NCBI RefSeq assembly: GCF_046119375.1
Contig: NW_027362767.1
Span: forward strand, 134,974,001 to 135,038,000
Length of the DNA stretch: 64,000 bases
From: Phyllobates terribilis
Taxonomy: Eukaryota
Direction: 5' to 3'
Part shown: piece by piece, positions 3,001 to 29,361 of the stretch
Layout: each line of letters opens with the position of its first letter
How positions within the stretch are numbered: position 1 is the stretch's first letter
The notes under the pieces: generated by a model
What the model was told of the DNA's origin: nothing
The model's database searches: none
Seen by the model: only the letters and a program-made list of their open reading frames with translations
Program-made: the position numbers and the translations under genes

Positions 3001-6000
3001 CAGAAACACGGACACACGACTCAGACACAGATACATGGCTCAAAAAACACGGACACAACTCAGAAACACGGACACACGACTCAGAAACACGGACACACGA
3101 CTCAGAAACACGCACACACGACTCAGAAACACGCACACACGACTCAGAAACACGGACACACGACTCAGAAACACGGACACACGACTCAGAAACACGGACA
3201 CACGACTCAGACACAGACACATGGCTCAAAAAGCACGGACACAACTCAGAAACACGCACACAACTCAAACACGGACACAACTCAGAAACACGGACACACG
3301 ACTCAGAAACACGCACACACGACTCAGAAACAGACACATTGCTCAAAAACACGGACACAACTCAGAAACACGGACACACGACTCAAACACGGACACACGA
3401 CTAAAACATGCACACACAACTCAGAAACACGGACACATGACTCAGAAACATGGACACAACTTAGAAACACGCACACAAGACTCAGAAACACGCAGACACG
3501 ACTCAGAAACACGGACACAACTTAGAAACACGCACACAACTCAGAAACACGCACACAACTCAGAAACACGCACACAACTCAGAAACACGCACACAACTCA
3601 GAAACACGCACACAACTCAGAAACACGCACACAACTCAGAAACACGCACACACGACTCAGAGACACAGATACATGGCTCAAAAAACACGGACACAACTCA
3701 GAAAAACGCACACACGACTCAGAAACACGGACACAACTCAGAAACATGGACACAACTCAGAAACACGGACACACGACTCAGAAACACGGACACACGACTC
3801 AGAGACACAGATACATGGCTCAAAAAACACGGACACAACTCAGAAAAACGGACACACGACTCAGAAACACGGAGACACGACTCAGAAACACGGACACACG
3901 ACTCAGAAACACGGACACACGACTCAGAGACACGGATACACGGCTCAGAAACACGCACACACGACTCAGACACAGACACATGGCTCAAAAAACACGGACA
4001 CAACTCAGAAACACGCACACAACTCAGAAACACGCACACACGACTCAGAAACACGGACACATGACTCAGAAACATGGACACAACTTAGAAACACGCACAC
4101 AAGACTCAGAAACACGCAGACACGACTCAGAAACACGGACACAACTCAGAAACACGCACACACGACTCAGAAACATGGACACACGACTCAGAGACACAGA
4201 TACATGGCTCAAAAAACACGGACACAACTCAGAAAAACGCACACACGACTCAGAAACACGGACACAACTCAGAAACACGGAGACACGACTCAGAAACACG
4301 GACACACGACTCAGAAACACGTACACACGACTCAGAAACACGGACACACGACTCAGAAACACGGATACACGGCTCAGAAACATGCACACACGACTCAGAG
4401 ACACAGACACATGGCTCAAAAAACACGGACACAACTCAGAAACACGCACACAACTCAGAAACACGGACACAACTCAGAAACACGGACACACGACTCAAAC
4501 ACGGACACACGACTAAAACATGCACACACAACTCAGAAACATGGACACAACTTAGAAACACGCACACAAGACTCAGAAACACGCAGACACGACTCAGAAA
4601 CACGGACACAACTTAGAAACACGCACACAACTCAGAAACACGCACACAACTCAGAAACACGCACACAACTCAGAAACACGCACACAACTCAGAAACACGC
4701 ACACACGACTCAGAAACACGCACACACGACTCAGAAACATGGACACACGACTCAGAGACACAGATACATGGCTCAAAAAACACGGACACAACTCAGAAAA
4801 ACGGACACACGACTCAGAAACACGGAGACACGACTCAGAAACACGGAGACACGACTCAGAAACACGGACACACGACTCAGAGACACGGATACACGGCTCA
4901 GAAACACGCACACACGACTCAGACACAGACACATGGCTCAAAAAACACGGACACAACTCAGAAACACGCACACAACTCAGAAACACGCACACACGACTCA
5001 GAAACACGGACACATGACTCAGAAACATGGACACAACTTAGAAACACGCACACAACTCAGAAACACGCACACAACTCAGAAACACGCACACAACTCAGAA
5101 ACACGCACACAACTCAGAAACACGCACACAACTCAGAAACACGCACACACGACTCAGAAACACGGACACACGACTCAGAGACACAGATACATGGCTCAAA
5201 AAACACGGACACAACTCAGAAAAACGCACACACGACTCAGAAACACGGACACAACTCAGAAACATGGACACAACTCAGAAACACGGACACACGACTCAGA
5301 AACACGGACACACGACTCAGAGACACAGATACATGGCTCAAAAAACACGGACACAACTCAGAAAAACGGACACACGACTCAGAAACACGGACACAAGACT
5401 CAGAAACACGGAGACACGACTCAGAAACACGGACACACGACTCAGAAACACGGACACACGACTCAGAAACACGGACACACGACTCAGAAACACGGACACA
5501 CGACTCAGAAACACGGACACACTACTCAGAAACACGGACACACTACTCAGAAACACGGACACACGACTCAGAAACACGGACACACGACTCAGAGACACGG
5601 ATACACGGCTCAGAAACATGCACACACGAATCAGAGACACAGACACATGGCTCAAAAAACACGCACACAACTCAGAAACACGGACACGACTCAGAAACAC
5701 GCACACACGACTCAGAAACACGCACACAAGACTCAGAAACACGCAGACACGACTCAGAAACACGGACACAACTTAGAAACACGCACACAACTCAGAAACA
5801 CGCACACAACTCAGAAACACGCACACACGACTCAGAAACATGGACACACGACTCAGAGACACAGATACATGGCTCAAAAAACACGGACACAACTCAGAAA
5901 AACGCACACACGACTCAGAAACACGGACACAACTCAGAAACATGGACACAACTCAGAAACACGGACACACGACTCAGAAACACGGACACACGACTCAGAA

Positions 6001-9000
6001 ACACGGACACACGACTCAGAAACACGGACACACGACTCAAACACGGACACACGACTCAAACACGGACACACGACTCAAACACGGACACACGACTCAGAGA
6101 CACAGACACATGGCTCAAAAAACACGGACAACTCAGAAACACGCACACACGACTCAGAAACACGCACACACGACTCAGAAACACGCAGACAACTCAGAAA
6201 CACAGACACAACTCAGAAACACGGACACACGACTCAGAAACACGCACACAACTCAGAAACACAGACACACGACTAAAACATGCACACACGACTAAAACAT
6301 GCACACACGACTCAGAAACACACACGACTCAGAAACACGCACACACGACTCAGAAACACACACGACTCAGAAACACGCACACACGACTCAGAAACACACG
6401 ACTCAGAAACACACACGACTCAGAAACACACACGACTCAGAAACACACACGACTCAGAAACACACACGACTCAGAAACACGCACACACGGCTCAGAGACA
6501 CAGATACACGGCTCAGAAACACGGACACATTGCTCAAAAACACGGACACGACTCAGAAACACGCACACAACTCAGAAACACGGACACACGACTCAGAAAC
6601 ACACACGACTCAGAAACACACACGACTCAGAAACACACACGACTCAGAAACACACACGACTCAGAAACACGGAGACACGACTCAGAAACACGGACACACG
6701 ACTCAGAAACACGGACACACGACTCAGAAACACGGACACACGACTCAGAAACACGGACACACGACTCAGAAACACGGACACACGACTCAGAGACACGGAT
6801 ACACGGCTCAGAAACACGCACACACGACTCAGACACAGACACATGGCTCAAAAAACACGGACACAACTCAGAAACACGCACACAACTCAGAAACACGCAC
6901 ACACGACTCAGAAACACGGACACATGACTCAGAAACATGGACACAACTTAGAAACACGCACACAAGACTCAGAAACACGCAGACACGACTCAGAAACACG
7001 GACACAACTTAGAAACACGCACACAACTCAGAAACACGCACACAACTCAGAAACACGCACACAACTCAGAAACACGCACACAACTCAGAAACACGCACAC
7101 ACGACTCAGAAACATGGACACACGACTCAGAGACACAGATACATGGCTCAAAAAACACGGACACAACTCAGAAAAACGCACACACGACTCAGAAACACGG
7201 ACACAACTCAGAAACATGGACACAACTCAGAAACACGGACACACGACTCAGAAACACGGACACACGACTCAGAGACACAGATACATGGCTCAAAAAACAC
7301 GGACACAACTCAGAAAAACGGACACACGACTCAGAAACACGGACACACGACTCAGAAACACGGAGACACGACTCAGAAACACGGAGACACGACTCAGAAA
7401 CACGGAGACACGACTCAGAAACACGCACACACGACTCAGAAACATGGACACACGACTCAGAGACACAGATACATGGCTCAAAAAACACGGACACAACTCA
7501 GAAAAACGGACACACGACTCAGAAACACGGACACACGACTCAGAAACACGGACACACGACTCAGAGACACGGATACACGGCTCAGAAACACGCACACACG
7601 ACTCAGACACAGACACATGGCTCAAAAAACACGGACACAACTCAGAAACACGCACACAACTCAGAAACACGCACACACGACTCAGAAACACGGACACATG
7701 ACTCAGAAACATGGACACAACTTAGAAACACGCACACAACTCAGAAACACGCACACAACTCAGAAACACGCACACACGACTCAGAGACACGGATACACGG
7801 CTCAGAAACACGCACACACGACTCAGAGACACGGACACACGACTCAGAGACACGGACACACGACTCAGAAACACGCACACATGACTCAGAGACACGGATA
7901 CACGACTCAGAAACACGGACACACGACTCAGAAACACGTACACACGACTCAGAAACACGTACACACGACTCAGAAACACGCACACGACTCAAACACGCAC
8001 ACGACTCAGAAACACACACGACTCAGAAACACACACGACTCAGAAACACACACGACTCAGAAACACACACGACTCAGAAACACACACGACTCAGAAACAC
8101 ACACGACTCAGAAACACACACGACTCAGAAACACACACGACTCAGAAACACACACGACTCAGAAACACACACGACTCAGAAACACACACGACTCAGAAAC
8201 ACGCACACACGACTCAGAAACACAGACACATTGCTCAAAAACACGGACACAACTCAGAAACACGCACACACGACTCAGAAACACGCACACACGACTCAGA
8301 AACACGCACACACGACTCAGAAACACGCACACACGACTCAGAAACACGCACACACGACTCAAACACGGACACACGACTCAGAAACACGGACACACGACTC
8401 AGACACAGATACATGGCTCAAAAAACACGGACACAACTCAGAAACACGGACACACGACTCAGAAACACGGACACACGACTCAGAAACACGCACACACGAC
8501 TCAGAAACACGCACACACGACTCAGAAACACGCACACACGACTCAGAAACACGCACACACGACTCAGAAACACGCACACACGACTCAGAAACACGGACAC
8601 ACGACTCAGAAACACGGACACACGACTCAGAAACACGGACACACAACTCAGAAACACGGACACACGACTCAGACACAGACACATGGCTCAAAAAGCACGG
8701 ACACAACTCAGAAACACGCACACAACTCAAACACGGACACAACTCAGAAACACGGACACACGACTCAGAAACACGCACACACGACTCAGAAACAGACACA
8801 TTGCTCAAAAACACGGACACAACTCAGAAACACGGACACACGACTCAAACACGGACACACGACTAAAACATGCACACACAACTCAGAAACACGGACACAT
8901 GACTCAGAAACATGGACACAACTTAGAAACACGCACACAAGACTCAGAAACACGCAGACACGACTCAGAAACACGGACACAACTTAGAAACACGCACACA

Positions 9001-12000
9001 ACTCAGAAACACGCACACAACTCAGAAACACGCACACAACTCAGAAACACGCACACAACTCAGAAACACGCACACAACTCAGAAACACGCACACACGACT
9101 CAGAGACACAGATACATGGCTCAAAAAACACGGACACAACTCAGAAAAACGCACACACGACTCAGAAACACGGACACAACTCAGAAACATGGACACAACT
9201 CAGAAACACGGACACACGACTCAGAAACACGGACACACGACTCAGAGACACAGATACATGGCTCAAAAAACACGGACACAACTCAGAAAAACGGACACAC
9301 GACTCAGAAACACGGAGACACGACTCAGAAACACGGACACACGACTCAGAAACACGGACACACGACTCAGAAACACGGACACACGACTCAGAGACACGGA
9401 TACACGGCTCAGAAACACGCACACACGACTCAGACACAGATACATGGCTCAAAAAACACGGACACAACTCAGAAACACGCACACAACTCAGAAACACGCA
9501 CACACGACTCAGAAACACGGACACATGACTCAGAAACATGGACACAACTTAGAAACACGCACACAAGACTCAGAAACACGCAGACACGACTCAGAAACAC
9601 GCACACACGACTCAGAAACATGGACACACGACTCAGAGACACAGATACATGGCTCAAAAAACACGGACACAACTCAGAAAAACGCACACACGACTCAGAA
9701 ACACGGACACAACTCAGAAACACGGAGACACGACTCAGAAACACGGACACACGACTCAGAAACACGTACACACGACTCAGAAACACGGACACACGACTCA
9801 GAAACACGGATACACGGCTCAGAAACATGCACACACGACTCAGAGACACAGACACATGGCTCAAAAAACACGGACACAACTCAGAAACACGCACACAACT
9901 CAGAAACACGGACACAACTCAGAAACACGGACACACGACTCAAACACGGACACACGACTAAAACATGCACACACAACTCAGAAACATGGACACAACTTAG
10001 AAACACGCACACAAGACTCAGAAACACGCAGACACGACTCAGAAACACGGACACAACTTAGAAACACGCACACAACTCAGAAACACGCACACAACTCAGA
10101 AACACGCACACAACTCAGAAACACGCACACAACTCAGAAACACGCACACAACTCAGAAACACGCACACACGACTCAGAAACACGCACACACGACTCAGAA
10201 ACATGGACACACGACTCAGAGACACAGATACATGGCTCAAAAAACACGGACACAACTCAGAAAAACGGACACACGACTCAGAAACACGGAGACACGACTC
10301 AGAAACACGGACACACGACTCAGAAACACGGACACACGACTCAGAGACACGGATACACGGCTCAGAAACACGCACACACGACTCAGACACAGACACATGG
10401 CTCAAAAAACACGGACACAACTCAGAAACACGCACACAACTCAGAAACACGCACACACGACTCAGAAACACGGACACATGACTCAGAAACATGGACACAA
10501 CTTAGAAACACGCACACAACTCAGAAACACGCACACAACTCAGAAACACGCACACAACTCAGAAACACGCACACAACTCAGAAACACGCACACAACTCAG
10601 AAACACGCACACACGACTCAGAAACACGGACACACGACTCAGAGACACAGATACATGGCTCAAAAAACACGGACACAACTCAGAAAAACGCACACACGAC
10701 TCAGAAACACGGACACAACTCAGAAACATGGACACAACTCAGAAACACGGACACACGACTCAGAAACACGGACACACGACTCAGAGACACAGATACATGG
10801 CTCAAAAAACACGGACACAACTCAGAAAAACGGACACACGACTCAGAAACACGGACACAAGACTCAGAAACACGGAGACACGACTCAGAAACACGGAGAC
10901 ACGACTCAGAAACACGGACACACGACTCAGAAACACGGACACACGACTCAGAAACACGGACACACGACTCAGAAACACGGACACACGACTCAGAAACACG
11001 GACACACGACTCAGAAACACGGACACACTACTCAGAAACACGGACACACTACTCAGAAACACGGACACACGACTCAGAGACACGGATACACGGCTCAGAA
11101 ACATGCACACACGAATCAGAGACACAGACACATGGCTCAAAAAACACGCACACAACTCAGAAACACGGACACGACTCAGAAACACGCACACACGACTCAG
11201 AAACACGCACACACGACTCAGAAACACGCACACACGACTCAGAAACACAGACACATTGCTCAAAAACACGGACACAACTCAGAAACACGGACACACGACT
11301 AAAACATGCACACACAACTCAGAAACATCGACACAACTTAGAAACACGCACACAAGACTCAGAAACACGCAGACACGACTCAGAAACACGGACACAACTT
11401 AGAAACACGCACACAACTCAGAAACACGCACACAACTCAGAAACACGCACACACGACTCAGAAACATGGACACACGACTCAGAGACACAGATACATGGCT
11501 CAAAAAACACGGACACAACTCAGAAAAACGCACACACGACTCAGAAACACGGACACAACTCAGAAACATGGACACAACTCAGAAACACGGACACACGACT
11601 CAGAAACACGGACACACGACTCAGAAACACGGACACACGACTCAGAAACACGGACACACGACTCAGAAACACGGACACACGACTCAAACACGGACACACG
11701 ACTCAAACACGGACACACGACTCAGAGACACAGACACATGGCTCAAAAAACACGGACAACTCAGAAACACGCACACACGACTCAGAAACACGCACACACG
11801 ACTCAGAAACACGCAGACAACTCAGAAACACAGACACAACTCAGAAACACGGACACACGACTCAGAAACACGCACACAACTCAGAAACACAGACACACGA
11901 CTAAAACATGCACACACGACTAAAACATGCACACACGACTCAGAAACACACACGACTCAGAAACACGCACACACGACTCAGAAACACGCACACACGACTC

Positions 12001-12052
12001 AGAAACACGCACACACGACTCAGAAACACGCACACACGACTCAGAAACACGC
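1..12052. repeat. Satellite array of 17/19/21-bp related units (core GACTCAGAAACAC(GG/GC)ACACAC) with ~5.4-5.6 kb higher-order repeat; extends beyond window start
   Basis: Direct reading: units ACGACTCAGAAACACAC (17), AACTCAGAAACACGCACAC (19), GACTCAGAAACACGGACACAC (21). + strand is strongly A/C-rich. Variant blocks recur at ~5.4-5.6 kb (e.g. 1021/6481, 3673/9116, 4651/10115). All long ORFs here are repeat translations. Confidence 0.98.
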
Positions 12053-13172
12053 GTGACTCAGATGCATGAACACGACTCTGACACAAGCACACAGGCTGTC
12101 ATAAAACACATCATTAAGACATTCTACAGAGACTTCTCGGTGATCACAGCTGTTCGTTCTTGTGGTATTGAATGAAACACACACCACTCTGGAATCTCCT
12201 TGCACTGAAAGCTGAAGTGATACAACAGACCTCTGCCTGAATTTATGTCTCCTTTCCAGGCAAAAATCGGCTTTCTAGGCAAGCGGTGGCCTGCAAACTG
12301 GACTCTGAATTCAACTCACACTTACTACAGACACAGTCCTAGAGCGCCATGCTGTATCATTCAGCTGTACCCCATTGTTGCCTATGACCTCTTTCCAAAA
12401 AATATGAACATATAAGGGACATTCATTAATTGGAACCACGTAAATCATCTTTCCTGTCTTTTCAGAGTTTACCAATATTAGTTTTCAGGAGTTTCGTGTT
12501 GGTCTTGTGCAGTTTTCTCTTTAGTCGGGGTATTTGTTTTCTACAGCTTGTTGTCTGAGTTACGTACTTTGCTTCATAGTTATTAATAGTCTTTAGATGA
12601 CCTATGTCTTCTCCCCCCAAGGATGCGGAATTGGTATACTTGACTGTGGGAGGTCTGACGCTCAGACATATGGTCGGCTGATCTTTGCTCACCATTCACA
12701 TAAGCGTGCCGGAGGAAACCTCATCTTCTCTTTTCATATTTTCCTGGGTTCAACCCTCTCATGTCGCAGGTCGTCTCAAGCCACCAGCCAGGATACAACA
12801 AAATTAGCAGATTAAATATTAAGCAGGACGGGCGCTAAGATTTCACATTGATGCCATCAGAACCTCCGTTAACAAGAGGAACGCTGGGACTTTCTCTGCT
12901 GCTTCCGTGACACAAAAGGGATCGTTTGCCAGGAAGGATTGAGACAACCTATTAACCTTTGTTTGGCAAGTTAACAGCGCAAATTATAGAGATTGCAACA
13001 TATATGAAGTTATAAGGAACATAACCGGTAAGAATAGAAGCACATGCCCCCTCTGGTTTGATTGACATCCCTAATAATATAGATATTAATATTAGATATA
13101 GAGGAAACTGAACACCAACAGCAGAAGCAATAGGGGATACTTTAGGAAAAACTACTTACAGGATTCCCTTAA

Positions 13173-13623: not shown

Positions 13624-13644
13624 GTGCTTTAATTAAACCCACAG
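13624..13644 (+). promoter_or_regulatory. Putative splice acceptor for the LINGO coding exon
   Basis: GTGCTTTAATTAAACCCACAG ends at 13644. LINGO genes characteristically have upstream exon(s) spliced to one large coding exon. Confidence 0.55.
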
Positions 13645-13722
13645 GTCAGGAGAAAAGCAGACGAGATCAGCCAGCAGGATGACCATCGCAGGATATACTC
13701 CTTTTCTCTCCTGCCTGTGAAG

Positions 13723-15579
13723 ATGGATATCGGGAGGTGCGCTCACGGTCTGCATCCACCCATCCTCCTCCTGTCACTTGGGATCCTACTTCGAGTTTTG
13801 TGCACATGTTGTCCTGCCCTTTGTGTCTGTCCTACGCATGACAACGCCACCTTGTGCAAACACAGGCTTCTGAGCCTAGTCCCGGTAGAAATCCCTCTGA
13901 CTTCCCATTTCCTGGATCTTAGTTATAACCGGATCCGGTCAGTACAACACGGAGCCTTTTCCCACTTGCAGTACCTACAGGAGCTAGACCTGAGCAACAA
14001 CCAGCTTTCACGCATGGAACCAGGAGCCTTCAGTGGTTTGCCAAACATCCGCATCCTACTAGTCCATCATAACCAGCTGAAGCTTCTGCCTCCCGGGGTC
14101 TTTACCGGCATGCCAGACCTGACCTGGCTGGATGTGAGAGCCAACCAACTGGTCATTCTGTTGGATCAGACGTTCCGTGGACTGAGGGAACTCCGACACC
14201 TGGAGGTCAGCGACAACCCCCTTCTCTTCATATCTCCGGGGGCTTTTTTGGGAATGCCAATGCTGCAGAGACTGGGGCTTGAGAAAACCAAACTAAGCAT
14301 GGTGCCGACGCATGCTCTCAGTACTCTCCCACGTCTATCAGAGCTCAGATTAGGAGGCGTCACAAGTACGATACTACACGATCTCTCGTTTTCAGGGATG
14401 CCACTCCTGAGAGTACTGGATATGGATCACTGGCCATCCCTAAAGAAACTTGGCACACTAAGTCTGTCTGGAATTAACCTTTCTTCCCTCTCGCTGACCC
14501 AGAGTGACCTAACCTCAGTACCGACAGAAGCACTGGTTTCTCAAATCCACCTTCGAAGACTCGATCTTTCTAACAATCCAATTGCTGTCCTTCAAGAGCG
14601 ATGCTTCAGTTCTCTTAAAAGTCTGGAGGAGCTCCGGCTTTCTGGGGGAAGACTGCACTCCGTACCTTCAGGTACTTTCCATGGTCTTGACCGTCTACGT
14701 CTTCTAGACCTTTCTCATAACCCACTTCATTGGGTAGCCAAAGATGCTCTTCCCCCTCCCGGAAACCTAGAAACTTTACTCCTCTCTGGTACAAACCTTT
14801 CCTGTGACTGTCGTCTTTGCTGGCTCTTGCATCAGAAAATTAATTTTGGGGGGAACCCACCTGTCTGTGCTGCTCCTGCATTATTACGAGGCACGATTAT
14901 TCCGGACCATTCGGAGACGCTATGCCCAGAACTTTTTTCCTGCCAGCCTCCTAAAATAGTGGAACAAGGCCTACGAGAGTTAAAAGTTAAAGAAGGCGAC
15001 CGACTGACCGTAACTTGCCAGAGCCATGGAGTGCCAGAGCCGTCCATGGACTGGGTGCTGCCCAAGATGGCAGATACGGGGTCTTCAGAGGTGGCTGTAA
15101 CCACAGAGCTTCCTCTTCACACATCTCCATCAGAAGAGGTGACCAGATCAGTATGGAGGGCAATAAACATGCCACTGATGAAGAAGCCTGTGGAGAACTC
15201 AGAGGGCAGGATATCTGTCCTACCAGGGGGCTCCCTGCAGTTTTTCCCAGTACTAGCACAGGACAATGGTGCCTACCTCTGTGTTGCTAGTAACGTAGCA
15301 GGTAATGACTCTGTCTGGATTCACCTGGAAGTGACACCTTTGAATGGCAGCACCCTCCTTCCCCCACTCTCCATGGTCCATACCCATCTGCTGGCTGTCA
15401 TTACTGCTGGGGGCATACTGCCCTTCATCAGTTCAGTAACGCTCTGCTTCATCTTCATCTTTCTATGGAGCCGAGGACGCGGGAATATCAAACACACGGC
15501 CAACATAGACTATATCCCCAGGACTTCCAGAGGACCTTCATCACCTGAAGACAACAAATTCACAATGAAACTTATCTAA
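13723..15579 (+). CDS. lingo4: LINGO-family LRR and Ig domain-containing transmembrane receptor, most likely LINGO4 (618 aa, single coding exon)
   Basis: Signal peptide; LRRNT CPALCVC..C; ~12 LxxLxLxxN repeats; LRRCT CDCRL..C; Ig domain (C..W..DNGAYLC); TM LLAVITAGGILPFISSVTLCFIFIFLW; LINGO-type tail WSRGRGNIKH..IDYIPR..KFTMKLI. First ATG is at 13723 (the ORF-track start 13717 is GTG). Paralog call rests on proximity to creb3l4 (both on human 1q21.3): family certain, paralog less so. Confidence 0.85.
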   Translation: MDIGRCAHGLHPPILLLSLGILLRVLCTCCPALCVCPTHDNATLCKHRLLSLVPVEIPLTSHFLDLSYNRIRSVQHGAFSHLQYLQELDLSNNQLSRMEPGAFSGLPNIRILLVHHNQLKLLPPGVFTGMPDLTWLDVRANQLVILLDQTFRGLRELRHLEVSDNPLLFISPGAFLGMPMLQRLGLEKTKLSMVPTHALSTLPRLSELRLGGVTSTILHDLSFSGMPLLRVLDMDHWPSLKKLGTLSLSGINLSSLSLTQSDLTSVPTEALVSQIHLRRLDLSNNPIAVLQERCFSSLKSLEELRLSGGRLHSVPSGTFHGLDRLRLLDLSHNPLHWVAKDALPPPGNLETLLLSGTNLSCDCRLCWLLHQKINFGGNPPVCAAPALLRGTIIPDHSETLCPELFSCQPPKIVEQGLRELKVKEGDRLTVTCQSHGVPEPSMDWVLPKMADTGSSEVAVTTELPLHTSPSEEVTRSVWRAINMPLMKKPVENSEGRISVLPGGSLQFFPVLAQDNGAYLCVASNVAGNDSVWIHLEVTPLNGSTLLPPLSMVHTHLLAVITAGGILPFISSVTLCFIFIFLWSRGRGNIKHTANIDYIPRTSRGPSSPEDNKFTMKLI

Positions 15580-18268: not shown

Positions 18269-20007
18269 TATATATAGCATATAAATATATATGCTTCTCC
18301 ATAAGTCACAGGAATTATTCCCAATATCTCGCATTATTTACAGATTAGCAGTAAAGCGGGTGCAGAGCTCTGGCTCCCTGTAATGGTGGAGGCTCAATCC
18401 TGTACACAAATAACATTTCCCATAGAATTAATTCTTACCTACAGTAGTTATTATCACTGCTTGCACAGAATCAAACGGGGCCACCGAGCTCTGATCTGTC
18501 ACCTTACCTCTGTAGCATGAACTGCACATTATGATTCACATGAAAGGGAATGATAATTATGGCCAACGTTTCTCCAGGTGAAGTAGAAAGAGGTTACTGA
18601 AATCATCAATATTGGCACTGATCTCCGACGCCCCGAGTTGGGGGTCGTTGCAGCTTTGTTCCTCACGTAGCTCCGCCGCTAACTGCAGAGAACACGAAGG
18701 AGTCTAAAAATCACTGGACCTTACAGATAATGGGGTCTGTTCTGAAACGAAAAGGTTAAAGAAAAAATTACATCAGTGATAGCAGTAGCAGCAAAGGGTT
18801 AATAACATAACATGGCTGATCAGAGGTGACAATGGGGGATATAGCCACCGAAAAATGGAAGACAGTGCTCAACAGGGCCACGGTTTGTCACTAAGAAGCT
18901 AAAATGGAGGATATGATCTGCCAGAAGACGCCTCATGGAGGGTATGGATCTGTCAGTAATGGGTTAATGGAGTGTAAGGCGATGGGACATGCTGCCCATA
19001 TTTCCCTCTTGAAGAAACAAGCTTGTTATTATGAAAAGTTATGTGATGCAATGTGAACTGTGATGTATAGTGTGACTTGTGATGTGTGTTAAAGGTATTA
19101 GCAATACTGATAGTATGTGTAGTTTGACAATAGTGATAATAAGTGTTAATGTTTGGGACTAGCCCTCAGTGGGAGTGGATGAGTTGCAGGGAAAGTGACA
19201 ATTTCCTGCCAGAGAGTCAGATAAGGAGCTCTTTCTATGCACTCCATACCCTAGGTTCCATGTGAGCAGTGTCACATTCTGGGGTGTCCCTAAGTGAGAG
19301 GAGACGAAAGTAAAGAGATAGCAAGATCCGTGGTAGAAGTGACTAAGAGACAGAGTGACCTTCCGGAGGCGGGTTCTGGGAGAGGACACCTAGCAGAAAG
19401 GCCTAGAGTTTACAGCTCTCAAGGTAAAGGGCCTGGACAAAACTGATTACGAGAGACAAATAGATTGTCCCGGGCGGGATTTCCAGAGTGTCTGGGAGTT
19501 TGAAGTTAAGTCCAGCCATACTAGCACCCTAAGGGGAAAGATGACACAGAACCACGGGGCGAGTAAAGGACTCTTACTAAGCAGGTCTGTAAAGTTAAAG
19601 CTGGGTTGGGGTGAAGTAGTGAGAAACAGTGGAAACAGAGGGTCAGTAGAAAGAGTAAAAGTGAGGCAAGAGGGCAAAAGAGGAAAGAAGGAAGAAACTG
19701 TGTGGAACATGCTTGGAGTTGCAAAGGAAACGTTTATAAGACTGTGTACCCGCTATCTCTGGTATATATTCCCTATCAGGTACCCGTTCAGTAAAATGTT
19801 TATTTTCGAATGGTGGTCTCCCTCACTGAACAGTAAAACATCTGGTCTGGCGAACCAGTAACATTGGTTACATGCGGCCTGCACGGGCAAAGCGCCCTCA
19901 CCACACAAGTCCACACTCCCAGCCAGAACCCCTACTTTCATGTAATGTGCCAATGTGCCACAGACGAGTGTCTCGCCCACGGCTACCGCCCCACGCCATG
20001 TTACACT

Positions 20008-20025
20008 TGGTGTAGTCGGCAGGAT
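20008..20025 (+). promoter_or_regulatory. Primer binding site complementary to the 3' end of tRNA-Ser
   Basis: TGGTGTAGTCGGCAGGAT matches 17/18 of the reverse complement of the vertebrate tRNA-Ser(AGA) 3' end (..ATCCTGCCGACTACGCCA), 2 nt after the LTR CA. Confidence 0.88.
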
Positions 20026-20878
20026 CGAGTCTTGCAGTTAGAAGAACAGAGTGATGCGGGGAAGACTCGAGTTATGTGGAAGACGAAGACCGTTATATGG
20101 CCTAAGATGGTGCCGAACATGAACTTTAAAATGGCGGTGAGTGGTACAGAACAGCAAAAAAGGCACCATACATTGTGGGCGTAGAAGGAAAGAAAGGGTG
20201 CGAAGCGGTGTCCAGCCCTTCAGAGGTTACACCTACAGGAGAGAGTGTCGGAACCGGGAGTGCCTGTCTACAGCGAGGAGTGGCCATTGCTGTAAAGAGA
20301 AGTGGAAGGATAAAGGCTTGCCCAGGAAAATGGGCGGAGAAGATCGAGAAACGGGATAGTGAGTCAGAGAAAACCACACCTAGTGAAAAGTGGAGTCATG
20401 ACGAGTCTCAAGAGATGGACGAGACGGTGCCATTTGTAGGTTGTGAGTTGGAGGAGCAACAGTGCAGAAATGCTGGGCAGAATGGCAGATGCTGATGGTG
20501 CGGAGCTAGGCCCATGAAGGAGTGGTTGGCTGGGAGCGATTGTGGCAGCTGATGGTGGCTGTGGTAGAGGAGGTGGGGCCCTGTGGCTTGATGGAGCCAT
20601 TGGTGATTAAGCAGGAGCCGGAACCATGGACATGGGCCTGGTTCACAGCCCACAGCAGGGCCAAACACTTAGAGGTTCTGCAGACTCAGATACTGTAGGT
20701 TTCCCCTCCGACTACGCAGGAGCCCCCACCAAGTCCGGAGGTAATCCTTAACCCTGGATACACATCTCTTACTCCTCGAGAGAAGTGAATTGCGAGGGTG
20801 GTCTAGGTGAAAAAAGAATGAGAACAGTGAGTTTGGACCCAGCTGGACAGCCTCAGTGGAGAGAAGCTCGCCCAGTTG

Positions 20879-21007
20879 ATGATGCAGGGGGTCGTCGTGT
20901 ACTATGACTGTGAAAGGGGCTTTGGCTTTCTAGTGGAGAATAACACCTTAGATAAAGTATACCTTAACCCAGTTCCATCCGTCACGGTCCCAGCCTCCGG
21001 TTCCTGA
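20879..21007 (+). pseudogene. Cold-shock-domain-like coding remnant inside the LTR element
   Basis: Reads MMQGVVVYYDCERGFGFLVENNTLDKVYLNPVPSVTVPASGS*. It aligns without gaps to the CSD N-terminal half (YBX1 [27 protein letters not shown]), including RNP1 (RGFGFL) and RNP2 (VYLN) equivalents. Confidence 0.7.
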
Positions 21008-21835
21008 AGGATGAGGCTGGTTTGCTATCGCGGTCTCCTGAATCCGGTAGGTGACAGCAGAAGTGCCTATAGCATTCCAGCCTCGTCAGGAGGTGTTAGC
21101 GCTTAGGGCAGTCACACCCCTGGGGCTAGAGAGAGGAAGAACTGTGGGGAGACCGCTTCGAGTGCCTGTGGACCCTCGGAAGAGGAAAATACTGAGGGAC
21201 TGTCAGCTGTAGCAGTCAACCCAGCCTTGGTGTATGTGGCCCCGGGTGCTCACTCAGCCATATACATGCGAAGAATAGAGGCTAAGGAGACCTGGGTCTA
21301 AGATCGCAAGTTGAGGAACCTTGTTAGAGAAATGTAGACAGGAGTTTGTTAGGCCAAGTTGTGCTGGTTGCACCCTCATGAAAGGACATGATTCCAGTGG
21401 GAAAATGATCCACCTCTCCGTGACCCCCCATGTTAATGGCCAAAGTACATGTTTCCCTTTACCTTTGTTTGTAGCACCTGTTGCGTATTCCTCTGCTGGA
21501 TTAATGAGACACTGCAGTCGCTGGAGGGTCCTACAGGGATTCTGGTTCAGTAGCATTAAGACTAACCAGATGGACTGGCACCAGGTTAGGAAAACAGTTA
21601 AATGTACTCGAATGGTCATAAGTTCTAGGGTCCTAACCGAGAGAATCAGCTCACACAGAACGGAAAGAGACGTTCACTAATTTAAGTAATGCGCAGGAGA
21701 GTGGTTTGGAAACTTTGGTGGTAACTGGTCTAAGTAAAGTGCAGGAGAGAGGTTTGACGTCCGTTATAAAGGTCTTGGTGACTTCAACTAATGATTCTTA
21801 GTTATGTGCAGAAAGACGTGTTGGTGTCGTAATGC

Positions 21836-22893
21836 TGTAACGTGGCGCGGGGCAGTAGCCACAGGAGAGGCACTCGTCTTCAGCGCCTTGGCACGTTGCA
21901 TGAAAGTGTGCATCCTGGCTGGGTGTGTGAACTTGTGCTGTGAGTGCCTTACGTCCGTGCAGGCTGAATGTAGCCGGTGTTGTTAAATGGCCAAGAACAG
22001 GTGTTTTACAGTTTAGTGAGAGAGACTTCTGTTCCGAAATAAACTCTTTACTGAACGGTAACTTGGTAAGGGTTATATACAAGGGATAGCGGGTACACAG
22101 TCTTATGGACGTTTCCTTTACAGTATGAAGCACTTTCCACATAGTATCCTTCCTCTGTAGTTTACTCCAGGGTTAGTGAGGATCAGAGTTTCTCCCTACT
22201 TCGCCACACCCAAGCTTTAACGCTACAGTCCTGATCAGCAAGTCTCCTCTCTCATCGGTTCCGCATCCTTTCTCTTCCACTACTGATGCCCTGGAACCCT
22301 TGTACCAGGGACCCTCTCTAGTCCCACGTACTTAATTCTGTTTAGATCCCTTACCTTCTGGGTTACAAGCTCTAGGGTTCGTGATTTGGCTTCCTCTCCA
22401 AAAACCCCTCTCTGGAAGGACACTGTCTCTTTCAGTCACTTTTTCTTCTGGATCTCACTATCCCTTCCCTTAATCTCCTCTCCCTGTGGATTACCCTTTC
22501 GGCTGTACTGCTCTCTCCGCACTCCAAAACTCTACTCTTCAACTAACAGGAAGCGCTCACTTGCTTTAACATTAACCCCCACATCTGTGGGCTAATCCCA
22601 AACATTACCTCTATCCTAACTTACCCTATCGTCACTACTTATGCTACAGTCAACTATCTATGTCCCTATATTACCGGTCCTATAACACTATACCTTACAT
22701 TATACATCCTATACTATACATTACTACACATTATGCATATTATACTTGCATATCACACTCTATACATTTCATATTGCCCATTACATCACAATATTCACAA
22801 AGACGCAGGACATTATTCACACTACAATACAACACATAATGTGATTGGGCTCTTCAGGGGTAGGAACGCAATAGCACAATCTACCCCCTTACA
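21836..22893 (-). mobile_element. Solo LTR of a related family, inserted antisense in the internal region
   Basis: TGTAACGTGGCGCGGGGCAGTAGCC at 21836 is the reverse complement of the host LTR 3' end; the other end CCCCCTTACA is at 22893; flanks ATGC/ATGA (3/4 TSD). Confidence 0.85.
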
Positions 22894-23327
22894 ATGATTC
22901 AGTGTATTACAGTTTCCGGAAGGCTGAGGGTGGCCATTCTTAAGAGAAAGGGAAATGTGAGGCGATGCACATGCTGTCCATGTTTCCCTCTTGAAGAAAC
23001 AAATTTGTTGTTATGAAAAGTTATGTGATGCAATGTGAACTGTGATGTATAGTGTGACTTTTGATGTGTGTTATAGGTGTTAGCAATACTGATAGGGTGT
23101 GCACTTTGACAATAGGGATAGTGCAAGATAATGTTTGGGACTAGCCCTGAGTGGGAGGGGCTGAGTTGCAGGGAAAGTAACAATTTTTTGTTAGAGAGTC
23201 AGATAGGACCTGGAGTGCATTGAAAGAGGGCTTAGGTTCCGTGTGAGCAGTGCCGCATTATGGGGTGTCCCTAAGTGAGAGGAGACTGAAGTAAAGAGGT
23301 AGCGAGATCCGGGGCAGAAGTGACTAA

Positions 23328-23715
23328 GGCTATGTGCCCACGTTGCATTTATGAAGCAGAAAATTTCTGCTTCATTTCTGCAAGTCCTCTCCCGGAAAAA
23401 CGCATGCGGAATTCCGCACGCGTTTATCGCGCATTTTTCGCGCGTTTATCACGCGTTTTTTACATGCGGAATTGCCTTGCGTTTTTTATGCATTGGACAA
23501 AGGCAATTCCGCTTGCGGAAACGCAAAATTAAATGACATGCTGCGGATTTTTGAACGCGGCATAAACGCTGCGGAAAAATTCGCAGCATGTGCATTGCCA
23601 TTGCGGAATGCCATTGGGGACCATGGGGTGCGGATATACATGCGTTTTTCAAGCGTTTACGCTGCGGAAATTCCGCAGCATATACGCTTGAAAAATGCTA
23701 CGTGGGCACACAGCC
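23328..23715. mobile_element. PIF/Harbinger-like MITE (short form) in the 3' LTR
   Basis: TIR GGCTATGTGCCCACG / CGTGGGCACACAGCC; 3-bp TSD TAA/TAT. The empty site GTGACTAAGAGAC is present in the 5' LTR. Confidence 0.9.
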
Positions 23716-24364
23716 TATGAGACAAAGTGACCTTCCAAAGATGCATCCTGGGAGAGGACGCCTAGCATAAACGCTAAAGAGTTTTCAGCTCGCAAGGTAA
23801 CGGGCCTGGACAGGACTGAATACGAAAGATGAATATATTGTCCCGGGCAGGAGTTCCTGAGGGTCAGCAGCTTGAAGCTGAGTCCGGCCATACTAGCACC
23901 CAAAAGGGAAAAAAGACGCAGAACCACGGGGCGAGTAAAGGACTATTGCTAATCAGGACGGTAAAGTTAAAGCTGGATTGTGGTGAAGTAGTGAGAAACT
24001 GGAAACAGAGTACGAGTAGAAAGAGTAAAACAGTAAAAGTGAAACTAGAGGGCAAAAGAAAAAAGAAGGAAGAAACTGTGCGAAAATGCTTCACGTTGTA
24101 AAGGAAGCATCCATAACACTGTGTACCCGCTATCTCTTTTATATATGGTCTACCAAGTTACTGTTCAGTAAAATGTTTATTTTCAAATGGTGGTCTCCCT
24201 CACTGAACAGTCCAACACCTGGTCCTGGCAAACCAGCAACATCAGTCACATGCAGCCTGCACAGCCCCTCACTCACACCCAGCCAAGACCCCTACTGTCA
24301 TGTAACGACCAGGGTGCAAGAGACTAGTACCTCGCCCACGGCTACTGCCCCGCACCACGTAACA

Positions 24365-25265
24365 GGAGGACATTTCCTGTCAGCAATGGGTTAACAGAGG
24401 ACATTTCCTGTCCGCAATGGGTTAACGGAGGACATTTCCTGTCCGCAATGGGTTAACGGAGGACATTTCCTGTCAGCAATGGGTTAACGGAGGACATTTC
24501 CTGTCAGCAATGGGTTAACGGAGGACATTTCCTGTCCGCAATGGGTTAACAGAGGACATTTCCTGTCCGCAATGGGTTAACAGAGGACATTTCCTGTCCG
24601 CAATGGGTTAACAGAGGACATTTCCTGTCCGCAATGGGTTAACAGAGGACATTTCCTGTCCGCAATGGGTTAACAGAGGACATTTCCTGTCCGCAATGGG
24701 TTAACAGAGGACATTTCCTGTCCGCAATGGGTTAACAGAGGACATTTCCTGTCCGCAATGGGTTAACAGAGGACATTTCCTGTCCGCAATGGGTTAACAG
24801 AGGACATTTCCTGTCCGCAATGGGTTAACAGAGGACATTTCCTGTCAGCAATGGGTTAACAGAGGACATTTCCTGTCAGCAATGGGTTAACAGAGGACAT
24901 TTCCTGTCAGCAATGGGTTAACAGAGGACATTTCCTGTCAGCAATGGGTTAACAGAGGACATTTCCTGTCAGCAATGGGTTAACGGAGGACATTTCCTGT
25001 CCGCAATGAGTTAACGGAGGACATTTCCTGTCCGCAATGGGTTAACAGAGGACATTTCCTGTCCGCAATGGGTTAACAGAGGACATTTCCTGTCAGCAAT
25101 GGGTTAACAGAGGACATTTCCTGTCAGCAATGGGTTAACGGAGGACATTTCCTGTCAGCAATGGGTTAACAGAGGACATTTCCTGTCAGCAATGGGTTAA
25201 CGGAGGACATTTCCTGTCAGTAATGGGTTAATGGAGGACATTTCATCAGTAATGGGTTAATGGAG
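24365..25265. repeat. 31-bp minisatellite GGACATTTCCTGTC(C/A)GCAATGGGTTAAC(A/G)GA, ~29 copies
   Basis: Direct reading; one degenerate unit (CTGTCAGTAATGGGTTAATGGAG) lies left of the LTR insertion at 18950-18972. Confidence 0.97.
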
Positions 25266-25455
25266 GCCATATGACCTTTTACTGACAGGCTACATCTTCA
25301 GTTATTGGAGGACATTTTGTCAGGTAACACTGAGGATTGTCAGTCACACAGTAATGGCTGTGTACCAGTGTCCTGTCACTACACGACGGACGCCATGTTC
25401 CTGTGGACACTGCAAGAACCCGACCTGTACACGACTGTCACCACTGCTGGGGATG

Positions 25456-28400
25456 GACAGTATCACACAGGACAGGATTAGATACACGGCTCAGCAGACA
25501 GTATCACACAGGACAGGATTAGATACACGGCTCAGCAGACAGTATCACACAGGACAGGATTAGATACACGGCTCAGCAGACAGTATCACACAGGAGAGGA
25601 TTAGATACACAGCTCAACAGACAGTATCACACAGGATAGGATTAGATACACAGCTCAGCAGACAGTATCACACATGATGGGATTAGATACACAGCTCAGC
25701 AGACAGTATCACACATGATGGGATTAGATACACAGCTCAGCAGACAGTATCACACAGGACAGGATTAGATACACGGCTCAGCAGACAGTATCACACAGGA
25801 CAGGATTAGATACACGGCTCAGCAGACAGTATCACACAGGACAGGATTAGATACACAGCTCAGCAGACAGTATCACACAGGATAGGATTAGATACACAGC
25901 TCAGCAGACAGTATCACACAGGATAGGCTTAGATACACAGCTCAGCAGACAGTATCACACAGGGTAGGATTAGATACATGGCTCAGCAGACAGTATCACA
26001 CAGGGTAGGATTAGATACACAGCTCAGCAGACAGTATCACACAGGATAGGATTAGATACACGGCTCAGCAGACAGTATTAAACAGGACAGGATTAGATAC
26101 ACAGCTCAGCAGACAGTATTAAACAGGACAGGATTAGATACACAGCTCAGCAGACAGTATCACACAGGACAGGATTAGATACACGGCTCAGCAGACAGTA
26201 TCACACAGGACTGGATTAGATACACAGCTCAGCAGACAGTATCACACAGGATAGGATTAGATACACTGCTCAGCAGACAGTATCACACAGGACGGGATTA
26301 AATACACTGCTCAGCAGACAGTATCACACAGGACAGGATTAGATACACTGCTCAGCAGACAGTATCACACAGGACGGGATTAAATACACTGCTCAGCAGA
26401 CAGTATCACACAGGACAGGATTAGATACACTGCTCAGCAGACAGTATCACACAGGACAGGATTAGATACACTGCTCAGCAGACAGTATCACACAGGACGG
26501 GATTAGATACACTGCTCAGCAGACAGTATCACACAGGACAGGATTAGATACACTGCTCAGCAGACAGTATCACACAGGACGGGATTAGATACACTGCTCA
26601 GCAGACAGTATCACACGGGACAGGATTAGATACACTGCTCAGCAGACAGTATCACACAGGACAGGATTAGATACACTGCTCAGCAGACAGTATCACACAG
26701 GACGGGATTAAATACACTGCTCAGCAGACAGTATCACACAGGATAGGATTAGATACACTGCTCAGCAGACAGTATCACACAGGACGGGATTAAATACACT
26801 GCTCAGCAGACAGTATCACACAGGACAGGATTAGATACACTGCTCAGCAGACAGTATCACACAGGACAGGATTAGATACACTGCTCAGCAGACAGTATCA
26901 CACAGGACAGGATTAGATACACTGCTCAGCAGACAGTATCACACAGGACAGGATTAGATACACTGCTCAGCAGACAGTATCACACAGGACGGGATTAGAT
27001 ACACTGCTCAGCAGACAGTATCACACGGGACAGGATTAGATACACTGCTCAGCAGACAGTATCACACAGGACAGGATTAGATACACAGCTCAGCAGACAG
27101 TATCACACGGGACAGGATTAGATACACTGCTCAGCAGACAGTATCACACAGGACAGGATTAGATACACAGCTCAGCAGACAGTATCACACGGGACAGGAT
27201 TAGATACACTGCTCAGCAGACAGTATCACACAGGACGGGATTAGATACACTGCTCAGCAGACAGTATCACACGGGACAGGATTAGATACACTGCTCAGCA
27301 GACAGTATCACACAGGATAGGATTAGATACACTGCTCAGCAGACAGTATCACACAGGACGGGATTAAATACACTGCTCAGCAGACAGTATCACACAGGAT
27401 AGGATTAGATACACTGCTCAGCAGACAGTATCACACAGGACGGGATTAAATACACTGCTCAGCAGACAGTATCACACAGGACAGGATTAGATACACTGCT
27501 CAGCAGACAGTATCACACAGGACAGGATTAGATACACTGCTCAGCAGACAGTATCACACAGGACAGGATTAGATACACTGCTCAGCAGACAGTATCACAC
27601 AGGACAGGATTAGATACACTGCTCAGCAGACAGTATCACACAGGACAGGATTAGATACACTGCTCAGCAGACAGTATCACACAGGACGGGATTAGATACA
27701 CTGCTCAGCAGACAGTATCACACGGGACAGGATTAGATACACTGCTCAGCAGACAGTATCACACAGGACAGGATTAGATACACTGCTCAGCAGACAGTAT
27801 CACACAGGACAGGATTAGATACACAGCTCAGCAGACAGTATCACACAGGACAGGATTAAATACACAGCTCAGCAGACAGTATCACACAGGATAGGATTAG
27901 ATACACATCTCAACAGACAGTATCACACAGGACAGGATTAGATACACAGCTCAGCAGACAGTATCACACAGGACAGGATTAGATACACAACTCAGCAGAC
28001 AGTATCACACAGGACAGGATTAGATACACAGCTCAGCAGACAGTATCACACAGGACAGGATTAAATACACAGCTCAGCAGACAGTATCACACAGGATAGG
28101 ATTAGATACACATCTCAACAGACAGTATCACACAGGACAGGATTAGATACACAGCTCAGCAGACAGTATCACACAGGACAGGATTAGATACACAGCTCAG
28201 CAGACAGTATCACACAGGACAGGATTAGATACACGGTTCAGCAGACAGTATCACACAGGATAGGATTAGATACACGGCTCAGCACACAGTATCACACAGC
28301 ATAGGATTAGATACACGGCTCAGCACACAGTATCACACAGCATAGGATTAGATACACAGCTCAGCAGACAGTATCACACAGGACAGGATTAGATACACAG

Positions 28401-29361
28401 TTCAGCAGACAGTATCACACAGGACAGGATTAGATACACAGCTCAGCAGACAGTATCACACAGGACAGGATTAGATACACAACTCAGCAGCCAGTATCAC
28501 AGGATAGGATTAGATACACAGCTCAGCAGACAGTATCACACAGGAAAGGATTAGATACACAACTCAGCAGACAGTATCACACAGGACAGGATTAGATACA
28601 CAACTCAGCAGACAGTATCACACAAGACAGGATTAGATTCACAACTCAGCAGACAGTATCACAGGATAGGATTAGATACACAGCTCAGCAGACACTATCA
28701 CACAGGATAGAATTAGATACACAACTCAGCAGCCAGTATCACAGGATAGGATTAGATACACAGCTCAGCAGACAGTATCACACAGGAGATGATTAGATAC
28801 ACAGCTCAGCAGACAGTATCACACAGGAGATGATTAGATACACAGCTCAGCAGACAGTATCACACAGGATAGGATTAGATACACGGCTCAGCAGACAGTA
28901 TCACATAGGAGATGATTAGATACACTGCTCAGCAGACAGTATCACACAGGAGATGATTAGATACACTGCTCAGCAGTCAGTATCACAGCACAGGATTAGA
29001 TACACAGCTCAGCAGACAGTATCACACGGGACAGGATTAGATACACAACTCAGCAGACAGTATCACACAAGACAGGATTAGATTCACAACTCAGCAGACA
29101 GTATCACACAGGAGAGGATTAGATACACAGCTCAGCAGACAGTATCACACAGGATAGGATTAGATACACAGCTCAGCAGACAGTATCACAGGATAGGATT
29201 AGATACACAGCTCAGCAGACACTATCACACAGGATAGGATTTGATACACAACTCAGCAGCCAGTATCACAGGATAGGATTAGATACACAGCTCAGCAGAC
29301 AGTATCACACAGGACAGGATTAGATACACAGCTCAGAAGTCAGTATCACACAGAATGGGAT
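25456..29361. repeat. 41-bp minisatellite ACAGGACAGGATTAGATACAC(A/G/T)GCTCAGCAGACAGTATCAC, ~95 copies; two further units at 31012-31090
   Basis: Direct reading (period 41, e.g. 25501 to 25542); array resumes after the Tc1 at 31012. Confidence 0.97.

Follow-up and report, generated by a model that had tools for sequence, protein, structure and literature searches.

A broken LTR retroelement copy of Phyllobates terribilis, devoid of gag and pol matches, bears the remnant of a cold-shock domain that probably derives from a Y-box protein

A stretch of 64,000 nucleotides of the Phyllobates terribilis genome (the window, meaning here the whole stretch of DNA analysed) contains an old, broken copy of an LTR retroelement, whose internal region includes a broken copy of a genuine cold-shock domain (CSD). 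In the relatives of this element, the domain and a charged helix that precedes it are under purifying selection within a single open reading frame (ORF). Our best explanation, to which we give an even chance, is that the element in the window is a dead LTR retroelement without detectable gag or pol, whose CSD, probably Y-box-derived, would bind the element's own RNA, protect it and pass it on to the particles of a helper Gypsy element; the mobilization in trans, the Y-box origin, the RNA binding and the preference for own RNA are inferred.

The window element shows the usual marks of an LTR retrotransposon, namely paired TG...CA LTRs, a primer site, a polypurine tract and a target duplication, which are also present in its relatives (Table 1). 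Its LTR pair is 83.5% identical, its target duplication comprises 4 bp, and its length is ~3.9 kb once two inserts are subtracted. At a rate of 2.5e-9 per site per year, a value taken from a poison-frog genome preprint (bioRxiv 10.1101/2023.11.06.565769), the LTR divergence gives a rough date of ~37 million years. The LTR-like sequence that begins at 21836, just past the 20006-21835 interval given in the first-pass annotation, belongs to an inserted, inverted solo LTR and not to the element's own 3′ LTR, and its last ~310 bases are 72-76% identical to the LTRs of the host element. The whole 64-kb window gave no match to gag or pol, and ARAGORN detected no tRNA gene in it. The surroundings of the element include tandem arrays of 21-bp units with extreme strand skew (1-12100), of a 62-bp period that begins at the element's right end (24360-25270) and of 41-bp units (25333-29200). 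On the + strand there are also an open frame of 648 codons that encodes leucine-rich repeats together with an Ig domain (13633-15579), likely a host gene, which ends 3.4 kb upstream of the element, and a frame with a ZCCHC3-type RNA-binding domain (51936-52922; E 2e-18), which we take to be the likely ORF1 of a non-LTR element.

Table 1. Features of the CSD-bearing LTR element, in positions of the window
Feature	Position	Strand	Remarks
Left target-site duplication (GGAG)	18969..18972	.	Same 4 bases follow the 3′ LTR
5′ LTR (TG...CA)	18973..20005	+	Agrees with the 3′ LTR at 842 of 1008 aligned bases
Primer-binding site	20008..20025	+	Shared by the three CSD clades with the two Gypsy families considered as helpers
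Decayed low-complexity N-terminal part of the single ORF	20008..20785	+	Begins W-C-S-R-Q-D in the primer-site frame, like intact copies
Charged helix preceding the CSD	20786..20881	+	Three stops in the window copy
CSD remnant	20882..21044	+	First half in frame to 20968, RNP1 and RNP2 present
CSD remnant, second half	to ~21044	+	Interrupted by three gaps, two of which shift the frame
Inverted insert, a solo LTR from a related family	21836..22893	-	Target duplication matches at 3 of 4 bases
Polypurine tract	22942..22955	+	Of the CSD-bearing element
3′ LTR	22956..24364	+	MITE-like inverted-repeat element inside at ~23329-23715
Right target-site duplication (GGAG)	24365..24368	.	

The starting point was a CSD-like peptide noticed at 20888-20968 of the + strand, with 8 of 27 identities to a stretch of YBX1, which is present as described. 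Taken alone, this peptide reaches a non-significant 12.6 bits with the Pfam CSD model (PF00313; E 0.13, model positions 1-27 only), and a Pfam scan of the six whole frames of 20006-21835 gave no CSD match. Against a profile made of clade B copies (see below), the diverged locus L069 and one Anomaloglossus protein, with no row from the window's own clade, the stretch scores 15.3 bits; when the internal region was shuffled 1000 times, the best score was 6.3, and the match is not due to chance. A DNA search of the genome returned 8 matches, the window included; among these paralogues, L002 and L003 hold a full CSD (Pfam model 2-58, E about 1e-4), L004 shows a weaker match, L007 has a deletion inside the domain, and L005, L006 and L008 give no Pfam match. 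Stop-free relatives exceed the 27-bit Pfam cut-off (L051 with 32.5, L054 with 30.4 and a fragment of L042 with 31.4). Aligned with four paralogues, the window copy still shows the later half of its CSD up to ~21044, spread over other frames by gaps after 20968, 20995 and 21011. The copy is decayed, as had been proposed, but the stop at 21005-21007 cited for it sits in an already wrong frame, because the gaps shift the second half of the domain out of frame; three further stops lie in the upstream helix.

In this genome of 10.6 Gb, a protein search with the L002 region gave 8572 candidates (all of the 150 scored matched) and a search with the Pfam CSD model gave 33,380 (all of the 150 scored passed the cut-off), numbers that refer to candidates and are not copy numbers. 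Thirty loci fetched from the Pfam search comprised 20 of one element type, 8 exons or retrocopies of host CSDE1, one YBX-like pseudogene and the unassigned L069, the gene names being our reading of the sequences. Intronless CSDE1-like copies, partly tandem-duplicated, lie near 734.44 Mb (L059-L064, G000 C1). The 10-kb stretches around the loci revealed at least three clades of LTR elements of 3.9-5 kb: clade A, that of the window (~3.9 kb, with LTRs of ~0.8 kb that are 94-99% identical in young copies), clade B (~4.9 kb, LTRs of ~1.2 kb with identities of 79-100%, five loci reaching 99.8-100%) and clade D (~4.7 kb, LTRs of ~1.0 kb, 97-99.7% identical). The family has spread recently, with LTR pairs 95-100% identical in most young copies. 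Target duplications in the three clades mostly comprise 4 bp, and all three use one primer site, which in them and in the window element we take to be of the tRNA-Ser type. Each clade carries one long ORF made up of a low-complexity arm, the charged helix, the CSD and a tail, and no Pfam family other than the CSD came out below E 0.05 when such ORFs were scanned. Stop-free copies score 30-32 bits with the Pfam CSD model in clade A and 37-40 bits in clade B; the clade D copy L255 stays below the cut-off with 22.6 bits (E 1e-4).

Some further traits of these ORFs were observed. The reading frame of the CSD continues without a stop across the primer site and far into the 5′ LTR, over 99-167 codons at 11 of 13 sites of clade A (set L039-L049) and over 147-198 codons at 10 of 10 sites of clade D (set L252-L262), and the frame at the same position of autonomous elements is open for 7-69 codons at 11 sites, counts that include many near-identical copies and an LTR part that is weakly constrained (dN/dS about 0.7). 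The CSD protein may start inside the LTR. Young clade A copies show a PPxY motif directly before the helix (for example L042:3096-3107), presumably a possible WW-domain ligand or a late-domain-like motif. A protein database search with the clade A region yielded 0 of 246 candidates; the best ESM Atlas scores (0.86 and 0.83) both correspond to CSD clusters and are leads only, and contigs of 4 sequencing runs cover the family ORF, an observation that counts neither way, their RNA nature being a guess.

Among 49 fetched loci of the three clades, both LTRs were in view in 27 (11 of clade A, 10 of B and 6 of D), and the rest were truncated, tandem, interrupted or flanks of L069. Four Gypsy gag/pol queries matched inside none of these 27 paired-LTR elements (E 0.01), and with no match to gag or pol (PR-RT-RH-IN) in them or in the window, the status of autonomous Gypsy (Metaviridae) elements is rejected for the CSD elements. 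At twenty loci with the window's leader, gag/pol was found only in nested or adjoining elements, except at L163, a PNMA-type Gypsy with no CSD match. A search for a CSD fused to pol gave none among 5 matches (7999 candidates scored), which is weak evidence, and an apparent pol-CSD linkage at L107 turned out to be a nested insertion.

Candidates for the missing machinery are present in the same genome. An autonomous Gypsy adjoining L058 (L058+L125) carries, between LTRs that are 97% identical, a Gag frame of 347 aa (27.5 bits for PNMA, E 0.001 for the zinc knuckle) and a frame of 1376 aa that encodes RT and integrase, and has no CSD. It also shows the primer-site context and the polypurine tract of clade B, and over 514 nt of U5, primer site and leader it is 86% identical to the clade B copy L104 and 73-80% identical to three other clade B copies. 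A second PNMA-type family (L183-L202), with LTR ends TGTAAG...TTACA, the same primer site as clade A and no CSD in 20 loci, has no more than 26-36 bases in common with clade A, at the LTR end and the primer site; for clades A and D taken together, such sharing amounts to only 24-36 bases. Sequence comparison thus makes a PNMA-type Gypsy the likely helper of clade B and an only plausible one of clade A, the window's clade. In the 15 loci examined, Gypsy elements of the Gmr1 type (integrase before RT) use a different primer site and do not match clade A at the DNA level, and they were rejected as helpers. In the LTRs of clade B, as in those of its likely helper, U5 contains a second, partial copy of the primer site that lies 150-180 bases upstream of the LTR end (for example L102:1033 and L102:4783).

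It could be argued that the ORF encodes a Gag that has diverged to an extreme degree, with the CSD in place of the zinc-knuckle nucleocapsid, and that co-assembles into particles. The position of the ORF, at the place of gag after the primer site, and its nucleic-acid-binding domain near the C-terminus would agree with such an origin, as would the PPxY motif, which presumably resembles a retroviral late domain. Besides, pol-less LTR families with only gag are known (Bhikhari, PMC12067270; 1a11, PMC4585706). However, the ORFs scanned gave no capsid, PNMA or Retrotrans_gag match, blastp against two helper Gags was not significant (best E 0.65), a profile comparison of helix plus CSD with the helper Gag returned 0.03% probability, and the N-terminal parts of clades A and B have no mutual blastp match, with only helix plus CSD aligning, all of which makes us regard this origin as very improbable. 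As regards a replacement within a gag, the suggestion in the first-pass annotation that the CSD could take over the nucleocapsid function is not supported either, given the count of 0 of 27 for gag/pol and a likely helper whose Gag keeps its zinc knuckle.

Purifying selection on helix plus CSD is observed in clades A and B. The dN/dS of this region is 0.16-0.23 in 5 disjoint clade A pairs and 0.09-0.37 in 5 clade B pairs, some of them overlapping, and over 16 ORFs the median rises from about 0.2 in helix and CSD to 0.35-0.55 in the arms and about 0.7 in the part of the frame within the LTR, all these values coming from copies found by protein similarity, which biases dN down. Frame controls in 4 pairs gave 0.16-0.25 for the coding frame versus 1.05-2.99 for the +1/+2 frames, and the antisense frame that shares third positions shows a low dN/dS, as expected; transversions alone give a clear third-position excess in only 3 of 6 pairs. 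Even the in-frame stretch of the window has a pN/pS of 0.24 and 0.26 versus L002 and L003 (shifted frames 0.8-1.6), and five other old pairs have 0.30-0.54. The prediction that other copies would hold an intact CSD ORF with dN/dS below 1 is thus confirmed, with stop-free ORFs at about 0.2. The idea of a passenger without function, or of an accidental likeness to a CSD, can be regarded as refuted: it agrees with the E of 0.13 for the window stretch alone, but full domains above the Pfam cut-off, a CSD fold, retention in four frog genera and a dN/dS of about 0.2 with frame controls all contradict it.

On the other hand, selection could in principle act for the frog, with the protein being kept because it restrains the helpers or plays a developmental role like that of the Bhikhari Gag, and with the spread of the element as a side effect. 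L069, a diverged, intact, low-copy member with no detected LTRs, is what such a benefit might look like. However, it is between many dispersed, young and mobile lineages that selection is seen, a pattern in better agreement with selection acting on the element than with selection at a single locus of the host, and we consider a benefit to the frog decidedly unlikely. L069 itself (L069:1216-2112, - strand; G000 C4 near 791.52 Mb) is a diverged, stop-free helix-plus-CSD frame with a loop of YBX length. It has a single close copy, broken, at a distance of 17 kb, and neither a primer site nor a pair of LTRs was detected in the surroundings of L069; this sequence is a candidate domesticated gene or a candidate relic of an old clade. 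Another isolated CSD-like frame, with no LTR context found (L204:1447-1860, - strand), keeps the K-W-F-N motif.

Structure prediction agrees with the sequence matches. A model of helix plus CSD built from 14 natural copies (pLDDT 82.5) contains two helices and five strands, and in the model of an intact relative the charged region is predicted to form two helices, at 19-43 and 46-54. Modelling the full length from a single sequence gave no useful result (pLDDT 38.6). The best Foldseek match of the helix-plus-CSD model is CspA (E 1.3e-6, rmsd 1.6, TM 0.87 on target), followed by other Csp, Lin28A, YBX2, CRHSP-24 and YBX1, so that in these models the five-stranded OB-type barrel of the CSD is present in the family. 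The core Phe/Tyr/Trp residues of RNP1 and RNP2 are conserved, and among 92 distinct full-length domains the last position of RNP1 is F/Y in 90 and RNP2 has F/Y in 91. The β1 Trp and the RNP2 His, which we take to be the base-stacking residues of canonical CSDs, have a different fate: the Trp occurs once among 31 clade B domains and does not figure among the six commonest residues of the other 61, and the His (2 of 92) is mostly Asn, Thr or Ser. Because these two residues are mostly replaced, RNA binding by the family CSD may be weaker or changed.

As for its origin, the CSD looks to be of the Y-box type rather than of the Lin28 type. YBX1 is the top match of the long-loop members L069 (28.0 bits vs 23.3 for the best bacterial Csp) and P0041 (23.1 vs 20.2), in both cases with a gap-free alignment, and the short-loop copies of the window's type have a bacterial Csp as top match. 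A 16-row A2 profile scores 52.2 with YBX1, 52.0 with CspA, 25-26 with Lin28 and 19 with CSDE1. Lin28 joins its CSD to two CCHC zinc knuckles; the frog proteins have no such knuckle (0 of 5), and this, together with the 25-26 bits of Lin28 versus 52 of YBX1, disfavours the Lin28 mimicry that had been suggested. In a tree of 53 domains and 70 columns, which contains no Lin28 or CARHSP1 rows and in which L204 is a long branch, 26 element-type rows fall on one side of a branch (support 89/79, unstarred) and the sister group is not resolved; a grouping of the element CSDs with CSDE1 is not rejected (p-AU 0.14). Long-loop rows nest among short-loop rows, so that the loop may have changed in either direction. 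The CSD was probably taken from a host Y-box protein.

The domain is not restricted to this species. Most of the best 150 matches in a profile search of 1.84 billion proteins were multi-CSD proteins, and within those 150 only two single-domain matches also covered the helix, from Dendrobates tinctorius and Anomaloglossus baeobatrachus. The protein of A. baeobatrachus contains the translated primer site (WRSRQD), and a protein of Ranitomeya imitator is of the clade B type. Related proteins thus occur in four poison-frog genera, in the three besides Phyllobates as database proteins.

The most likely pathway would start with the translation of the CSD protein from the very RNA that is to be packaged, to which it would then bind through the CSD and its basic arm. 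Y-box proteins mask maternal mRNA, and the bound CSD protein could shield or mask the element RNA in a similar way. Its helix or arm would either oligomerize or dock on the helper Gag, and PNMA-type Gypsy helpers would package and copy the CSD elements in trans. Our best guess is that the protein works as a cis-acting RNA chaperone or adaptor; a cis preference is proposed because selection between non-autonomous copies would keep the ORF most easily if the protein favours its own RNA. A bolder generalization, which we put forward tentatively and at somewhat less than even chances, is that these elements form an undescribed group of LTR 'satellites', whose sole gene would be a captured and remodelled Y-box protein, with at least three clades depending on different Gypsy helpers; they would have persisted for tens of millions of years in poison frogs, masking their RNA like maternal mRNA, feeding it into helper particles and contributing to genome gigantism.

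Alternatively, the protein could act in trans as a Y-box mimic, competing with or redirecting the germline machinery of mRNA masking or silencing, so that the family and its helpers would be less repressed. The loop of Y-box length and the YBX-first ranking of the long-loop members are in line with such a role, the altered stacking residues would suit a decoy, and the PPxY before the clade A helix would presumably offer a WW-domain ligand, but this motif is absent from the clade B proteins P0003 and P0159 and from P0041. Gypsy RNA has been described as abundant in the ova of another poison frog (PMC6278860). However, a purely trans benefit would be shared with ORF-less freeloaders and would for this reason be harder to keep selected in three clades, and we consider this role rather unlikely in comparison with the cis-acting chaperone or adaptor.

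Non-autonomous LTR elements usually encode nothing or keep gag, and a young, high-copy family in which no gag or pol is seen and purifying selection maintains a single RNA-binding protein of host type implies a step in the LTR life cycle worth encoding a protein for, with RNA protection, translational masking and loading into helper particles as candidates. The family offers a defined protein and RNA to study the survival of retroelement RNA in oocytes, and bears on why LTR elements escaped control in the 6-10 Gb genomes of poison frogs. It also touches gene annotation, with some frog entries being element-derived or chimeric: the annotated P. terribilis proteins P0004 and P0005 combine a piece of a clade B CSD with R3HCC1 or with a part that resembles a transposase, and are probably chimeric gene models.

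The family represents a known kind of element, a non-autonomous LTR element with a captured host domain, and was itself not found in the literature searched. Kojima's Helenus/Ajax paper (PMC10886601), in its accessible parts, contains no frog or CSD element, two poison-frog genome papers (PMC6278860; bioRxiv 10.1101/2023.11.06.565769) do not mention a CSD in the available main text, and no published report of the frog family was found in a search whose scope did not extend to Repbase reports, subscription papers and bioRxiv supplements. A close precedent is that of bird endogenous retroviruses, which have captured CSDs repeatedly (46 ERVs; PMC12287698) and, like the frog elements, hold a host CSD within an LTR-bounded element. 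In the passages available from that paper, the bird CSDs lie at varying positions of retroviral genomes and no selection test is given, whereas the frog CSD occupies a fixed position as the core of the sole ORF, shows a dN/dS of about 0.2 and is found in thousands of candidate copies without gag and pol. The pol-less, single-ORF LTR families 1a11 of Xenopus (PMC4585706) and Bhikhari of zebrafish (PMC12067270) are likewise non-autonomous elements with one long ORF in a frog or fish genome; they encode Gag-like proteins, with a capsid fold predicted for Bik-1, whereas the frog ORF shows no capsid detectable by sequence or profile and a host-type CSD instead. The PNMA-type Gypsy elements of the same genome have in common with the CSD elements the primer site, the TG...CA LTRs and the 4-bp target duplication, and with clade B also U5, leader and polypurine tract, but they encode a zinc-knuckle Gag and PR-RT-RH-IN, and no CSD. 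Finally, YBX1 and YBX2 (FRGY2) share with the frog protein a single CSD with a long β3-β4 loop, which aligns without gaps to L069 and P0041, and in YBX proteins, in a layout like that of the frog ORF, an Ala/Pro-rich arm precedes the CSD. The frog protein differs from them in its low identity, in the replacement of most Trp and His stacking residues, in an added charged helix, in having no long alternating basic/acidic tail, and in a loop that is shortened in most of clade A.
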